From positions 78,663 to 142,662 of the forward strand of contig CAYZTL010000008.1 in the NCBI GenBank assembly GCA_964481465.1: 64,000 nucleotides of DNA, written 5' to 3'. Positions 488-23,104 of the stretch are shown here, one piece after another. This DNA is from an uncultured Anaerolineales bacterium. GTDB taxonomy: Bacteria; Chloroflexota; Anaerolineae; Anaerolineales; UBA11858. A program made the position numbers and the translations under genes. Under the pieces are notes generated by a model that had not been told where the DNA came from, made no database searches, and saw only the letters and a program-made list of their open reading frames with translations. Numbering within the stretch: the stretch's first letter is position 1; each line of letters begins with the position of its first letter.

Positions 488-2227
488 ATGAGTAACGACG
501 GCAAGATCATCACTCCCTACGGTGGAAAACTCGTGAACCTGTTGGTACCCGAAGCAGAGCATGATGGATGGGTGGAACGAGCGAACCAGTATCCCTCCCT
601 CCAACTCACGGACCGCGCTTTGCACGATTTGGAACTGCTCGCGGTGGGCGGGTTTTCCCCATTAGACCGCTTCATGGAAGAAGACGATTACCAGCGCGTG
701 CTGACGGAAATGCGTTTGGATGATGGGACATTATTTCCGATTCCCATTACGCTGACCATCAATAAGGAAGAACTCCCTACGCGGGGAGAATGGATTACCC
801 TTCGGGATTCTCGAAATTATATCATCGCCGTGATGCGTATTGAGCAGGTATTCCGTTGGGATCCCACTCGAGAAGCACGCCTGGTGTTGGGCACAACTGA
901 TCCCCGGCATCCCCTGGTTTCTGAGATGGAGCATTGGGGCGATTTATGCATCTCTGGCGAATTAAAAGTGATCCAGATGCCAGTTTATTATGATTTTGTG
1001 GACATCCGCCACTCCCCAAGCGAGGTCCGGTCTTTGCTGGAGAAAATCGGTAATGAGCACGTGACCGCCTTTCAAACCAGGAATCCCATGCACCGCGTTC
1101 ATGAGGCATTGACCAAACGGGCGCAGGAACGCGTGGGTGGAAGTCTATTGATCCACCCCGTGGTGGGGTTGACCAAACCCGGTGATGTGGACCATTACAC
1201 TCGCGTTCGAGTCTACAAAGCGCTTGTTGATCATTATTATGATGAGAACACCGTGCTCAGCTTGCTGCCTTTGGCGATGCGCATGGCGGGTCCGCGAGAA
1301 GCGCTCTGGCATGCGATCATCCGGCGAAATTATGGCGCGGATCATTTCATTGTCGGGCGGGACCATGCGGGTCCGGGTGAGGACAGCAATGGGAGACCGT
1401 TTTATGGGCCTTATGAGGCTCAAACGATGATGGACCAGTACCGGGATGAGATCGGGGTTACTGTGGTCAAATTCGATGAGTTGGTGTATCTCGAAGATGA
1501 GGATCGATATGTGTCTCGTGAGGAAGCCCCTGACGATGCTAAAGAAGCCTACATCTCAGGCACCCAGGTCCGGGAGGAGTATCTGGCCAACGGGAAAGAG
1601 CTGCCTTCCTGGTTCACGAGGAAAGAAACAGCTGAGATCTTGCGGGAAACCTATCCGCCCCGTCATAAACAAGGGCTTTGCATCTGGTTTACCGGACTGA
1701 GTGGTTCGGGAAAATCCACCATTGCCAATGCATTAACGCCCATGCTTATGGAGCGGGGACGGCAAGCGACCACCCTGGATGGGGATGTCGTCCGCACACA
1801 TCTCTCCAAAGGATTGGGATTCAGCAAAGAAGATCGAGACACGAACATCCTGCGCATTGGCTTTGTGGCTGGGGAGATCGCCCGCCATAACGGCACAGCC
1901 ATTTGCGCGGCGATCAGCCCGTATCGGAAAACCCGCAATGAAGCCCGGAAAATGGTGGGAATGGACAAATTCGTCGAGGTTTATGTCAGCACTCCCCTGG
2001 AAGTCTGTGAAGAGAGGGACGTCAAAGGTCTGTACGCCAAAGCTCGCAGCGGTGAAATCAAAGGCTTCACGGGGATCGACGACCCTTATGAAGAACCGCG
2101 GAACGCGGAAATTGTCATCAACACCGTCGGCAGAACACCCAAAGATTGTGCTCAGGAGATTGTGGATTATTTGGAAAATCACGGATTTCTGAAACCGGAT
2201 GGGTTTACGCCCAATCAAGCTGAATGA
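488..2227 (+). CDS. sat-cysC: Bifunctional sulfate adenylyltransferase (ATP sulfurylase) / adenylylsulfate kinase, a PAPS synthase
   Basis: N-terminal sulfurylase motifs '[11 protein letters not shown]' and 'GRDHAGPG'. C-terminal APS kinase P-loop '[11 protein letters not shown]' followed by 'LDGDVVR'. 579 aa, ATG start with AAGGAG upstream. Confidence 0.9.
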
Positions 2228-2299
2228 AGACCGGGGGATTGCGGGCGGATCTTCATGTGATTCTCTCTCTTTTGATCCGAACTTGTCTTGGAGAATGCT

Positions 2300-3121
2300 A
2301 TGAAGAAGGTTGGCGATTTATTTGACCTAAGCGATCGGACAGCTTTAGTGACAGGTGGAGCTGGATTCCTTGGGCAGCACTTCTGTGCAGCGCTGTCCGA
2401 GGCTGGAGCCAACGTGGTTGTGGCGGATATTGACCACAAAACTGCGCTTGATTTTGCAAAGGACCTCGAATCCAGGCTGGGACCCGCTGCTGGTGTAGGG
2501 GTGGATATCGCTGATCCGGAATCTGTCCGGGAAATGGTGGATTTTACCTTAGACCAATTTGGGCGATTAGATATCCTGGTCAATTCAGCGGCTTTGGATC
2601 CAAAATTTGACAGCCAGAGCGCCTCTAAGCACGTCTCTTCTTTTGAGGATTTTCCCCTCCAGGCCTGGCAGAACGCCATGGATGTCAATCTTACGGGTAT
2701 GTTTTTAGCCTGCCAGGCAGCAGCGAAGGTCATGAAAGAGCGCGGCAAAGGGTCTTTGATCAATATTTGCTCCACTTACGGCATTACGGGACCGGATCAG
2801 CGGCTTTATGAATCTCTTGGAGAACCCCGGAAATACAAGCCGGTCTATTACACAGTCAGTAAAGCCGGGGTCCTGGGCTTGACGCGCTACATCGCCACAT
2901 ATTACGCAGGTACGCAGATCCGTTGTAACGCGCTCACGCCTGGCGGAGTGGAGCACGGTCATGCTCCTGCCTTTAAAGAAGCCTACGCGAGCAGGACGGT
3001 TCTGGGGCGGATGGCTTACCCGCACGAAATGAAGGGAGCCATCGTCTTTCTGGCATCGGAGGCTTCCAGTTACATGACCGGGGCAAACCTGGTTGTGGAT
3101 GGAGGTTGGACAGCATGGTAG
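2300..3121 (+). CDS. Short-chain dehydrogenase/reductase (SDR)
   Basis: 'VTGGAGFLG' Rossmann motif and 'YTVSKAG' catalytic YxxxK. The track start at 2288 is TTG. The ATG at 2300 has GGAG about 8 nt upstream. Confidence 0.8.
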   Translation: MKKVGDLFDLSDRTALVTGGAGFLGQHFCAALSEAGANVVVADIDHKTALDFAKDLESRLGPAAGVGVDIADPESVREMVDFTLDQFGRLDILVNSAALDPKFDSQSASKHVSSFEDFPLQAWQNAMDVNLTGMFLACQAAAKVMKERGKGSLINICSTYGITGPDQRLYESLGEPRKYKPVYYTVSKAGVLGLTRYIATYYAGTQIRCNALTPGGVEHGHAPAFKEAYASRTVLGRMAYPHEMKGAIVFLASEASSYMTGANLVVDGGWTAW

Positions 3122-21266: not shown

Positions 21267-21362
21267 AACGAACTCCTTTATGGGTTTGATGTTTGTCTTA
21301 TTATAATTTAGCTTGATGGAAAACGAAATGGGTGCTGAAATTTTGTTGGCATACACCTATCG

Positions 21363-22367
21363 ATGATTGATCCCAAACTTCCTCTCATTGATCTCCATCG
21401 CCATCTAGATGGAAATGTCCGTCTGGAGACGATCCTGGAACTCGGTAAAAAGCACGAACTCCCCCTTCCTGCCTGGAGTGTTGAAGGGTTGAGGCCGTAT
21501 GTCCAGGTGATGAAATCCACAACGGGTGTGATGGATTTCATCCAAAAATTCGAATGGATGGTTGGGGTTCTGGTGGATTATGACGCCTGCCGGCGCATTG
21601 CATTGGAGAATGTGGAAGACGCATACATAGAGGGCTTGGATTATGTCGAACTGCGATTCAGTCCTCTGTTTATGGCCCAGCCCCATGACCTGGACCCTGA
21701 GAAGGTGGTCGAAGGGGTGGTAGCAGGGATTGAGCTGGGGCGAAAGAAATTTGATATCAAAGTGAATCTGATTGGGATTATCAGCCGTACGTTTGGCGTA
21801 GAACGGGCCTGGGTGGAGTTAGAATCTCTGCTGAGTCATCAGGAAAGCATTGTCGCTTTGGATTTGGCAGGTGATGAAAAGAATTACCCTGGGGATTTGT
21901 TCGTCGAGCATATTCAGAAAGGCCGCTCCGCAGGGTGGAATATAACCATCCATGCAGGTGAAGAGGCGGGGTCGGAAAGTGTGTGGCAGGCGTTGGAGGA
22001 ATTACATACGGATCGCATCGGTCACGGGATCAGCGCCGTCAAGGATCCGGATTTGATGGAGAGGCTGAAGGAGGAGCGAATTGGTTTGGAAATCAACTTA
22101 ACCAGCAACCTCCAAACCAATGTGGTCCCTTCCCTTCACGAACACCCTCTCCGTGTATTTCTTGAACGCGGCATACTGGCCACCATAAACACCGATGACC
22201 CGGGGATCAGCGGCATAGATCTCCGTCATGAATATACCCGGGCTGCACCTGCGGCAGATCTGTCACCGAAACAAATCAGGCAGGTCCAGAGGAACGCTTT
22301 AGCGGCAGCTTTTTTAACGGAGGATGAGAAGGATGCGTTAATGAGGAAAAAGGGCAGGGATCGATGA
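21363..22367 (+). CDS. add: Adenosine deaminase
   Basis: 'LIDLHRHLDGNVR', 'ITIHAGE', 'DRIGHG', 'INTDDP'. These cover the metal and catalytic motifs. Confidence 0.9.
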   Translation: MIDPKLPLIDLHRHLDGNVRLETILELGKKHELPLPAWSVEGLRPYVQVMKSTTGVMDFIQKFEWMVGVLVDYDACRRIALENVEDAYIEGLDYVELRFSPLFMAQPHDLDPEKVVEGVVAGIELGRKKFDIKVNLIGIISRTFGVERAWVELESLLSHQESIVALDLAGDEKNYPGDLFVEHIQKGRSAGWNITIHAGEEAGSESVWQALEELHTDRIGHGISAVKDPDLMERLKEERIGLEINLTSNLQTNVVPSLHEHPLRVFLERGILATINTDDPGISGIDLRHEYTRAAPAADLSPKQIRQVQRNALAAAFLTEDEKDALMRKKGRDR

Positions 22368-23104
22368 AGAAAGCCATGGTATTGTCTGTCGGTATGCCCC
22401 GGGCGGGATCAGGGTGGTTCTATAATCTCACCCATGATTTGGTTGTCGCTGCGGGGGGAGCTGATGCAAGGGAAACTCGCAGGAGGTATCACCTGCAGAA
22501 AATATTGACGGAAGTGAATTGCAATATGGGGACATTGACCTTTTATCGCCTGATCCCGGTGATGCTTCCCCTGGTTTTTGAGGACAGTTATACGATCAAG
22601 CTGCATGCAAAAAGGAAGCCTTTGGCTGGACTCTTTATGAAAATGGGGCTCATCAAACCCACTTATATTTACCGGGACCCCAGAGATGCTTTGCTCTCCG
22701 CTTATGAATACGGACAGAGGATGAGGGATCAAGGTAAAACGAACGCGTTCACACCCTTGACATCCATTGAACAGGCCATTGAATTCATGGAGTTATATGT
22801 TCAGGTCGGGAGAGGTTGGCTGTCTTTGGATTCAGCATTTCATATCCAGTATGAAGAATTATTGCAGGATTATGAAGAGAAAGTGGAGGAATTAATCCGT
22901 TATCTGGGCCTCGAGGATAAAAGATCGGCCTTTGATGAAGTCATTGATCGATATCGACCTGAGCAGGGCAGTCCTGACCAGCAAGGGACCCATTTCGTAA
23001 AGGGTAAGATCGGGCGTCATCGAGAAATATTTTCAGAGCGTGAAAAAGCAATCTGCGAACGAAAATTTGGAGCATTTTTAAGGGATGGGGATTATGAAAT
23101 ATAA
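22364..23104 (+). CDS. Sulfotransferase family protein (no. 3)
   Basis: 'GMPRAGSGWFYN' (5'-PSB-like loop) and 'YIYRDPRDALLS' (3'-PB). ATGA overlap with the add stop. Confidence 0.7.
   Translation: MKKAMVLSVGMPRAGSGWFYNLTHDLVVAAGGADARETRRRYHLQKILTEVNCNMGTLTFYRLIPVMLPLVFEDSYTIKLHAKRKPLAGLFMKMGLIKPTYIYRDPRDALLSAYEYGQRMRDQGKTNAFTPLTSIEQAIEFMELYVQVGRGWLSLDSAFHIQYEELLQDYEEKVEELIRYLGLEDKRSAFDEVIDRYRPEQGSPDQQGTHFVKGKIGRHREIFSEREKAICERKFGAFLRDGDYEI

Follow-up and report, generated by a model that had tools for sequence, protein, structure and literature searches.

To our knowledge, few bacterial glycans are sulfated, and outside rhizobia, mycobacteria and cyanobacteria almost nothing is known of the genes involved. 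In Synechocystis PCC 6803, the synechan (xss) locus is a Wzx/Wzy cluster with genes for two sulfotransferases, and the report on it noted that sulfotransferase genes were not found in other bacterial exopolysaccharide clusters (PMC8205485). Here we describe a cluster of chromosomal genes, at least 38 kb long, in an uncultured Anaerolineales bacterium (Chloroflexota), analyzed through a 64,000-nt stretch of contig CAYZTL010000008.1 (positions 78,663-142,662, forward strand), the whole of which is referred to below as the window. The cluster includes a gene for a fused ATP sulfurylase/adenosine 5'-phosphosulfate (APS) kinase (sat-cysC), which would supply 3'-phosphoadenosine 5'-phosphosulfate (PAPS), genes for nonulosonic acid synthesis, and five predicted sulfotransferase genes (ST4 and ST5 upstream of the window, ST1, ST2 and ST3 within it) that are interleaved with sugar-nucleotide and glycosyltransferase genes. 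It is a conserved, undescribed locus built from known enzyme families and, judging by its gene content, it probably builds a multiply sulfated, nonulosonic-acid-containing cell-surface glycan.

By analogy of gene layout, the xss locus is the closest architectural analog. In both loci, divergent PAPS-type sulfotransferases are found among glycosyltransferases and Wzy-type genes, along with a gene of PCP type (PCP, polysaccharide co-polymerase) that is a candidate in the Anaerolineales locus, and cytoplasmic sulfation of lipid-linked intermediates has been proposed for both. However, xss is plasmid-borne and cyanobacterial, encodes two sulfotransferases and an explicit Wzx, and has no PAPS synthase among its listed genes and no nonulosonic-acid genes, whereas the Anaerolineales locus is chromosomal, with five sulfotransferases, an in-cluster sat-cysC and TauE-family permease, NeuB and CMP-transferase genes, and GT-C glycosyltransferases, and no Wzx was seen in it. 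The closest logical analog is the rhizobial NodPQ/NodH and LpsS/KpsS systems. NodPQ is a GTPase-coupled sulfurylase of the CysDN type, not a homo-oligomeric Sat fused to CysC, there is a single sulfotransferase per substrate, and that operon contains no NeuB-type pathway. The likeness is that, for NodPQ/NodH, LpsS and KpsS, dedicated sulfate activation is genetically linked to a carbohydrate sulfotransferase acting on a surface or secreted glycoconjugate (PMC11625862).

The individual parts of the locus also have described relatives. The domain order of Sat-CysC (PUA-like, sulfurylase, C-terminal APS kinase) is that of the Aquifex aeolicus enzyme (2GKS). Accounts of the latter relate it to sulfur oxidation or assimilation, whereas here genes for sulfotransferases and glycan synthesis stand to either side of sat-cysC. 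With the 2-keto-3-deoxynononic acid (Kdn) pathway of Bacteroides thetaiotaomicron and the vertebrate N-acetylneuraminic acid 9-phosphate (Neu5Ac-9-P)/CMAS pathway, the locus shares a NeuB-family synthase, a KdsC-type phosphatase of the haloacid dehalogenase (HAD) family and a CMP-synthetase, and the fusion of the cytidylyltransferase and HAD domains mirrors the domain order of vertebrate CMAS. It differs from these 9-phosphate routes in that its NeuB, devoid of the SAF domain, scores below the equivalog cutoffs, and in that its second cytidylyltransferase, 2-hydroxyacid dehydrogenase and accompanying short-chain dehydrogenase (SDR) have no counterpart there. Sulfation of a nonulosonic acid has been described for vertebrate WSCD1 and WSCD2 and for no other enzyme (PMC9304399); ST1, which is translationally coupled to a candidate nonulosonic acid transferase, is likened to them on this ground and not by homology, and the sugar sulfated here may be another residue. 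A literature search found no described sulfated-glycan or sulfotransferase-nonulosonic acid locus in Chloroflexi/Anaerolineae, in line with an earlier note on this DNA, which knew of no characterized locus of such a combination. The locus differs from the known systems in the number and diversity of its sulfotransferases, in the inclusion of Sat-CysC and TauE in the cluster, in its nonulosonic-acid module and in its phylogenetic setting.

Protein identities were assigned with Pfam and NCBIfam profiles at their gathering and equivalog cutoffs, together with reading of the translations (Table 1). Within the window, the genes from sat-cysC to the last co-directional gene form a string on the plus strand (488-20925) in which 15 of the 17 junctions are overlaps or gaps of no more than 33 nt, as the earlier note had largely perceived (most junctions overlapping or under 35 nt), and this layout suggests co-translation. 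Translational coupling is found at the junctions Capsule_synth/ST1, where the ATG of ST1 and the Capsule_synth stop codon overlap, ST1/GT2a and ST2/GT2c (GT2, family 2 glycosyltransferase). A locus in an 83-kb contig found via the sat-cysC protein (L127) is 100% identical to the window over a 12,227-nt overlap, and together with L128 it adds at least 14.7 kb of further co-directional glycan genes upstream of window position 1 (L127 1-9513; L128 1-5250), a block that is also conserved in relatives; ST4 is recorded on the window's own 143-kb contig. Because glycan genes continue upstream on the same strand, sat-cysC lies in the middle of the cluster and not at its head. Accordingly, of the earlier claim that the fusion opens a co-directional string of about 20 kb, the string stands and the opening does not, and the three sulfotransferases counted then are those of the window, two short of the cluster's complement.

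All three sulfotransferases encoded in the window score above the Pfam cutoffs (22 and 27 bits for PF00685 and PF13469), ST1 with 41.2 bits, ST2 with 41.8 (and 42.3 for Sulfotransfer_3) and ST3 with 42.2. The motifs for binding the 5'-phosphosulfate (a loop) and the 3'-phosphate (R...S) read PKGGSHL and RDPRDLVVS in ST1, HRTGTTW and RHPLGFVSS in ST2, and PRAGSGW and RDPRDALLS in ST3, in which all three PAPS motifs are present; the reading frames at 6983, 14617 and 22364 and the motifs first reported for them were all confirmed. The start of ST1 (ATG at 6983) is fixed by the lengths of its homologs (288 aa; 967 homologs), and ST2, starting at 14617, is identical over its 308 aa to a database entry (P0121, on a 143,100-bp contig) and has 3539 homologs. 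In an alignment of 49 sequences, K45, G47, S48, H49, R125, S133, R249, K250 and G251 of ST1 are invariant, as are H10, R11, G13, T14, W16, R136, H137, P138 and S144 of ST2 among some 50 homologs; these positions are canonical contacts of PAPS. From the Pfam matches and these conserved motifs, ST1, ST2 and ST3 are predicted to be PAPS-type sulfotransferases.

In sequence searches of the PDB, ST3 directly matched SULT2B1b (E 1.7e-5), ST2 matched nothing, and ST1, the Capsule_synth-family protein and the MptE-like protein gave marginal matches only; ST1 and ST2 were therefore approached through structure prediction. The AlphaFold (AF2) models have a mean pLDDT of 92.4 for ST1 and 92.5 for ST2. 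The top Foldseek matches of ST1 are the sulfotransferases S4, SULT7A1 and SULT2A1, bound to adenosine 3',5'-bisphosphate (PAP; E 2e-8, probability 1.0), and those of ST2 are the CurM and OLS sulfotransferases, TPST1/2 and Stf1, bound to PAP or PAPS (probability 1.0), with TM-scores of 0.46-0.58 and 13-18% identity between the models and the PDB sulfotransferases. Thus, according to the models, ST1 and ST2 fold like PAP-bound sulfotransferases. The five proteins, all predicted to be soluble, share at most 30% identity over partial stretches and so represent five sulfotransferase subfamilies. ST4 and ST5, both on the same strand, are 346 and 302 aa long as called. The called start of ST5 omits the PAPS-binding loop; the in-frame sequence upstream of it (L127 6826-6990), IFICGHPKSGTTLVQS, restores HPKSGTTL, so that translation probably begins farther upstream, at a codon other than ATG. 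Some homologs of ST2 and ST4 carry the source annotation "LPS sulfotransferase NodH".

The membership of ST3 in this system follows from distant relatives: in eight such loci, ST3 homologs (41-47% identity) directly follow Wzy_C and end the cluster. In the window lineage, ST3 is separated from Wzy_C by a protease gene, a small minus-strand open reading frame (ORF) and an adenosine deaminase gene. This ORF interrupts the co-directional run within the 437-nt gap between the protease and the deaminase genes, so ST3 lies in a separate transcription unit in the window.

The Sat-CysC protein matches the NCBIfam equivalog for the bifunctional enzyme (NF004040) over its full length and both domains, with 852.1 bits against a cutoff of 669, and exceeds the cutoffs of the domain models TIGR00339 and TIGR00455 as well; its closest PDB structure is 2GKS ("Bifunctional SAT/APS kinase", E 5e-232). 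The sulfurylase and kinase signatures that were initially described as intact are so: the sulfurylase motifs (sought as QTRNPxHRxH and GRDHAG) and the kinase P-loop (GxxGxGKST), DGD and ISP loop (AISPYR) are all present in the translation. Upstream of sat-cysC, a small ORF (93 aa), a TauE-family permease gene and a Usp gene complete a module whose order is conserved, with ~80% identity in relatives.

The string further encodes NeuB together with two CTP_transf_3 (PF02348) proteins, in agreement with the NeuB/NeuA-type genes originally perceived. In the first of these, the cytidylyltransferase is fused to a HAD domain that has the intact motifs DFDGVMTD and GNDIND and scores 107.3 against 106.95 for TIGR01670, the generic YrbI phosphatase subfamily; the KDN-9-P phosphatase model stays below its cutoff (99.7 against 180 bits), as does the PseF-like match of the N-terminus (157 against 205). 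NeuB itself, without a SAF domain, is closest in the PDB to 6NCS (290 aa, annotated as sialic acid synthetase), with subequivalog scores for NeuB_NnaB (264 against 399) and PseI (210 against 340). The combination of a SAF-less NeuB close to 6NCS, an intact KdsC-type phosphatase and a fused cytidylyltransferase indicates a 9-phosphate route to the CMP-nonulosonate, and given that no ManNAc-forming enzyme is present, Kdn is favored between a Kdn and a Neu5Ac-type route. An assignment to the legionaminic or pseudaminic acid type, suggested by the DegT, dehydratase and formyltransferase genes upstream, was not adopted, as the intact phosphatase points to the 9-phosphate route. SDR1, which in relatives is likewise conserved after sat-cysC, resembles in its position PtmA, located ahead of the CMP-transferase in other loci. 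No gene of the string is better conserved than that for the 2-hydroxyacid dehydrogenase (64-73% identity), which, with the second cytidylyltransferase and SDR2, forms a highly conserved module; as a speculation, this module might convert the nonulosonic acid to a second form and re-activate it.

Two proteins are candidate nonulosonic acid transferases by sequence similarity. The first, the Capsule_synth-family protein, weakly matches the BFO_1060 family and, in the PDB, KpsC, and has no predicted transmembrane segment; the second, the MptE-like protein of the Maf family, weakly resembles the Cst-II sialyltransferase in its N-terminal part, around a GNGPS motif. The N-termini of both, like that of ST1, are basic and amphipathic-looking (a long helix in the ST1 model), which would fit peripheral membrane association.

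The nonulosonic-acid genes vary among related loci. A second variant of the module is seen in L046 (1389-3293), where NeuB is fused to AP_endonuc_2 (xylose-isomerase-like) and the cytidylyltransferase has no HAD domain; methyltransferase, ACP, ligase and acetyltransferase genes are additionally present in this locus. In five further loci (L006, L009, L018, L025 and L027), NeuB is ~40-48% identical and the cytidylyltransferase match is confined to the N-terminal part.

For assembly, the string encodes a Wzy_C-domain membrane protein (33.4 bits, cutoff 31.7) whose domain assignment fits a polymerase, a ligase and an O-oligosaccharyltransferase alike; the domain family (PF04932) covers PglL/PilO-type oligosaccharyltransferases along with polymerases and ligases. 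The adjoining 352-aa protein has a transmembrane segment near each terminus, a topology like that of Wzz and other PCPs, and a match of 21 bits, limited to its N-terminal part, to pepcterm_ChnLen (cutoff 279). Hence, of the Wzy/Wzz-type assembly claimed at the outset, the Wzy part is upheld by the domain match, and the Wzz part comes down to topology and a sub-threshold match. The PMT_2 gene is often duplicated in relatives: many distant loci have a second paralog between the GT-C gene and ST2, and in the same place two annotated distant loci, L097 (8538-9989) and L119 (8515-9990), encode an extra DUF6056 membrane protein. These additional proteins suggest several extracytoplasmic glycosylation steps.

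The gene arrangement was compared in two sets of loci. In the first, a scan of species-representative genomes for sat-cysC gave 45 loci, nearly all from Anaerolineales, Anaerolineae or Chloroflexota metagenome-assembled genomes (MAGs; best identities 94% and 92%). By tblastn with the window proteins, the genes for Usp, Sat-CysC, SDR, CMP-synthetase and NeuB, usually with Capsule_synth, occur together in 22 of them, each from a species-level genome and, where the contig runs on, are followed by ST1, GT2, CTP_transf_3, 2-hydroxyacid dehydrogenase, SDR and MptE genes (then PMT_2). The second set comes from a metagenome scan with an ST2 profile (585 relatives), from which 35 longer loci were compared; in most of these, the order is ST1 (often with a paralog), GT2, CTP_transf_3, 2-hydroxyacid dehydrogenase, SDR, MptE, PMT_2, GT2, ST2, GT2, and metagenome loci with ST1...ST2-GT2-(x)-Wzy_C-ST3 retain 35-70% identity. 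The second half of the string has the same arrangement on a 3.05-Mb contig (that of L046), and in two close relatives, L071 and L114, gene order matches that of the window over the whole stretch between Capsule_synth and panC. In all three annotated loci of the Wzy_C-ST3 type, a GAF histidine kinase gene follows the ST3 homolog. The arrangement, recurring in 22 species-level genomes and most of the 35 metagenome loci, is more than chance: the linkage of sat-cysC, nonulosonic-acid and sulfotransferase genes is conserved across Anaerolineales.

We propose the following scheme for the system. Sulfate would enter the cell, possibly via the TauE-family permease, and the fused enzyme would turn it into PAPS. 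NeuB would condense phosphoenolpyruvate with a hexose 6-phosphate, the KdsC-type phosphatase domain would remove the 9-phosphate, and the cytidylyltransferase fused to it would yield the CMP-nonulosonate. The KpsC-like and Maf/Cst-II-like proteins, with the GT2 enzymes, could then build up a glycan on a lipid carrier on the cytoplasmic side of the membrane, drawing also on the GDP-6-deoxyhexose and N-formyl-amino-sugar genes upstream. The soluble sulfotransferases would add sulfate esters at distinct positions in the cytoplasm, on lipid- or nucleotide-linked intermediates prior to export, and outside the membrane, the Wzy_C and GT-C proteins would act on the glycan by polymerization, ligation or decoration.

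Several observations weigh against this interpretation. The support for a Wzz is weak, the PCP-like protein being conserved only in the close relatives L071 and L114 and absent from distant loci. No Wzx flippase, ABC exporter or priming phosphoglycosyltransferase is encoded in the ~38 kb examined, and neither a Wzx nor a priming transferase in the annotated distant loci; these could lie elsewhere in the genome. No specific sugar (Neu5Ac, pseudaminic acid, legionaminic acid or Kdn) can be assigned, since NeuB and both cytidylyltransferases miss every equivalog cutoff. ST1 is absent in L002, reduced to a 28-aa remnant in L004 and split in L028, L040 and L044, where fragmentation may stem from indel errors in long reads or from genuine decay. 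Finally, in the 16.6-kb locus L008, the Gmd, Fcl, small ORF, TauE, Usp and sat-cysC genes are directly followed by the protease and adenosine deaminase genes, with no sulfotransferase or nonulosonic-acid gene visible. Because the TauE-Usp-sat-cysC module is kept there with none of the flanking sulfotransferase or nonulosonic-acid genes in the locus, PAPS has another use in at least this lineage.

A different product of the same genes, a protein-linked glycan, is the alternative that fares best, and we consider it rather unlikely. The cluster would then serve general protein O-glycosylation (e.g., of an S-layer protein or pilin), with the Wzy_C protein as a PglL-type oligosaccharyltransferase, nonulosonic acid added by the Maf-like protein, and sulfation of a short oligosaccharide. 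Such a function is compatible with the PglL/PilO-type members of the Wzy_C family, with the MptE-like protein as a member of the Maf flagellin-glycosylation family, with the failure of distant loci to keep the Wzz-like gene or show a Wzx, and with the BFO_1060 match of the Capsule_synth protein, that family reportedly including the nonulosonic acid transferase of the Tannerella S-layer O-glycan. However, a protein of PCP-like topology adjoins Wzy_C in the window lineage, the multiple GT-C proteins and TuaG-like GT2 enzymes resemble those of wall-polymer pathways, and none of the conserved genes of the locus encodes a candidate acceptor protein. For a 675-aa protein ("MAM"), encoded by the last gene of the string, the roles of Wzz and of glycan acceptor were weighed and rejected: it has an HEFQH motif and persists next to sat-cysC in L008, which is devoid of the cluster. 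This M6-like protease is probably a neighbor outside the glycan system.

We also regard it as unlikely that the sat-cysC/TauE/Usp genes are a general sulfate-activation module, for assimilation or other users of PAPS, to which the glycan genes are merely adjacent. The module is indeed better conserved than the flanking glycan genes, it persists in L008 with no sulfotransferase or nonulosonic-acid gene on either side within the 16.6-kb locus, sat-cysC occurs without the cluster in other Anaerolineae, and sat is near-universal in Anaerolineae MAGs (PMC11748557). Nevertheless, the earlier observation that no cysH, sulfite reductase or cysK is visible was reproduced and extended, with no domains of these proteins or CysDN in the 57 larger ORFs of the 64-kb window and no assimilatory sulfur genes in the 14.7 kb upstream. 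The same holds for 10 Chloroflexota loci that have sat-cysC without the cluster: among their 101 neighboring ORFs, the commonest families are epimerases/dehydratases (6), galactokinase (5) and Sulfotransfer_3 (3), and neither PAPS reductase nor sulfite reductase is found among the 25 commonest of 102 Pfam families. The 10 immediate neighbors of sat-cysC, scanned individually, include no PAPS/APS reductase, sulfite reductase or cysteine synthase; they are again sulfotransferases and sugar enzymes (epimerase, galactokinase, phosphoglucomutase), along with GAPDH and an aminotransferase. Moreover, sulfotransferase-rich glycan genes stand on both sides of sat-cysC across the 22 species-level genomes. 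The computational conditions that the earlier note named for its own refutation all came out in favor of its reading. The claim that the PAPS is dedicated to sulfotransfer is favored by these neighbors and weakened by L008, which keeps the module with no sulfotransferase gene in its 16.6-kb locus; PAPS from Sat-CysC may have additional users. The module would accordingly be a resident one, with the sulfotransferase-rich glycan genes arranged around it. In L008, the entire glycan block gives the impression of having been subject to an insertion/deletion polymorphism.

It is very unlikely that the substrates of the sulfotransferases, or of some of them, are not glycans but lipids, small metabolites or peptide tyrosines, with a merely incidental place among glycan genes: acceptor specificity is not readable from sequence, and the best matches are cytosolic small-molecule SULTs for ST1 and ST3 and include polyketide (CurM, OLS) and tyrosyl-protein sulfotransferases for ST2, but at 13-18% identity these structural neighbors reflect the common PAPS-binding fold rather than the acceptor, the five divergent proteins hold fixed positions between glycosyltransferase genes across distant genomes, and two of them take part in the translationally coupled junctions described above.

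The features of the cluster and its surroundings are collected in Table 1. The small minus-strand ORF is outside the glycan system and presumably encodes a YtxH-like membrane protein. The overlap between the adenosine deaminase and ST3 genes makes an adenosine salvage link to heavy PAPS/PAP turnover conceivable; as a functional link to sulfotransfer, the deaminase is unsupported, given that its pairing with ST3 is lineage-specific and that it stays with the protease in L008. An Rfam scan of the whole window detected no RNA family and no riboswitch 5' of sat-cysC, and promoter and terminator counts did not exceed shuffled expectation; the location of the best promoter-like site, 5' of sat-cysC, is suggestive by its position alone.

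Table 1. Genes and other features of the cluster and adjacent DNA. Positions refer to the window; genes upstream of it are listed in their order.
Feature	Position	Strand	Basis and remarks
Sugar formyltransferase	before position 1	same strand	
Dehydratase-like epimerase	before position 1	same strand	
DegT aminotransferase	before position 1	same strand	
GT1/GT4 glycosyltransferase	before position 1	same strand	
MarR-like regulator	before position 1	same strand	
Gmd	before position 1	same strand	
Fcl-like	before position 1	same strand	
RmlD-like	before position 1	same strand	
295-aa protein	before position 1	same strand	no assigned family
GT2 glycosyltransferase	before position 1	same strand	
ST4 sulfotransferase	before position 1	same strand	
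GFO/IDH/MocA oxidoreductase	before position 1	same strand	
ST5 sulfotransferase	before position 1	same strand	
93-aa ORF	before position 1	same strand	start of module
TauE/SafE-family permease	before position 1	same strand	
Usp, C-terminal part	20..373	+	Pfam Usp; 285-aa tandem Usp starting upstream of the window; full gene L127 9029-9886
Sigma-70-like promoter match TTGAAA-16-TG-TATGAT	370..397	+	best in 1-20000; in Usp/sat-cysC spacer; consensus match only
sat-cysC, predicted bifunctional ATP sulfurylase/APS kinase, 579 aa	488..2227	+	Pfam PUA_2 + ATP-sulfurylase + APS_kinase; NF004040
SDR1	2288..3121	+	Pfam adh_short_C2; best NCBIfam PRK09186, below cutoff
CMP-nonulosonate synthetase::KdsC/YrbI-type HAD phosphatase fusion (predicted)	3106..4320	+	Pfam CTP_transf_3 + Hydrolase_3
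NeuB-family nonulosonic acid synthase, 301 aa	4354..5259	+	Pfam NeuB (PF03102), 266 bits
Capsule_synth-family protein (KpsC-like, BFO_1060-like)	5379..6983	+	Pfam Capsule_synth, 29.1 bits, cutoff 20
ST1, predicted sulfotransferase, 288 aa	6983..7849	+	Pfam Sulfotransfer_1
GT2a glycosyltransferase	7850..8836	+	Pfam Glycos_transf_2; kept in synteny
Second CTP_transf_3 cytidylyltransferase	8833..9516	+	Pfam; below all NCBIfam equivalog cutoffs; kept in synteny
D-2-hydroxyacid dehydrogenase family oxidoreductase	9520..10482	+	Pfam 2-Hacid_dh_C
SDR2	10469..11245	+	Pfam; kept in synteny
MptE-like (DUF115/Maf-type) protein	11250..12074	+	Pfam MptE-like, 48.2 bits, cutoff 34.6
PMT_2 (GT-C fold) membrane glycosyltransferase	12102..13616	+	Pfam PMT_2, 60.8 bits; at least 7 hydrophobic segments
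GT2b glycosyltransferase	13613..14599	+	Pfam; kept in synteny
ST2, predicted sulfotransferase, 308 aa	14617..15543	+	Pfam Sulfotransfer_1 + Sulfotransfer_3
GT2c glycosyltransferase	15528..16316	+	Pfam; 59-68% identity in all ST2-anchored loci
Candidate chain-length regulator, 352 aa	16344..17402	+	two transmembrane segments, Wzz/PCP-like topology; no Pfam match
Wzy_C-domain membrane protein	17399..18901	+	Pfam Wzy_C; 10 hydrophobic segments
InhA/M6-like zinc metalloprotease, 675 aa	18898..20925	+	Pfam InhA-like_MAM; HEFQH motif; membrane-anchored by N-terminus
Small ORF, ~78 aa, MKKAFNFVLGAILGG...	21036..21269	-	read from sequence, inside listed ORF 21036-21356
Adenosine deaminase (ADA)	21363..22367	+	Pfam and NCBIfam equivalog passed; stop overlaps ST3 start by 4 nt
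ST3, predicted sulfotransferase, 246 aa	22364..23104	+	Pfam Sulfotransfer_1
Coenzyme A operon panB-panE-panC-coaX-dfp	23226-27927		compact, directly after ST3; identical order 3' of ST3 in L071 and L114

Farther along the window, the dnaA gene (53086-54978, minus strand) is followed by a 530-nt intergenic gap, and the cumulative GC skew flattens at ~48-54 kb; the replication origin may lie near dnaA. The presence of selA (selenocysteine synthase; 55488-56855) and of a sortase gene (50715-51620) is consistent with a selenoprotein-using organism with sortase-anchored surface proteins.

Anaerolineae are a globally abundant filamentous clade of digesters, sediments, soils and wastewater. The extracellular polymeric substances (EPS) of anaerobic granular sludge contain Kdn and sulfated glycoconjugates, for which a study of them found few matches to sulfotransferases and pathways and producers that are not well known (PMC10483923). 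The locus described here provides candidate genes for the sulfated, sialylated EPS of such granules. It also offers a set of new predicted carbohydrate sulfotransferases for biocatalysis. Furthermore, sat in Anaerolineae more likely reflects PAPS production for sulfation than sulfate reduction, which calls for caution in metagenomic inference on the sulfur cycle (PMC11748557).

It is possible, if on balance doubtful, that Anaerolineae as a class make a conserved polysulfated nonulosonic-acid envelope polymer, that is, a phosphate-free anionic wall or sheath glycan with its own module for sulfate uptake and activation and, possibly, a sulfated nonulosonic acid. If so, the polymer would have a function comparable to that of teichoic or teichulosonic acids or of the glycosaminoglycans of animals, and a sulfated nonulosonic acid residue would be new for bacteria. 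This would also explain the near-universal, transcribed sat genes of Anaerolineae that are unable to reduce sulfate, and would reveal one source of the sulfated, Kdn-rich EPS in anaerobic granular sludge.

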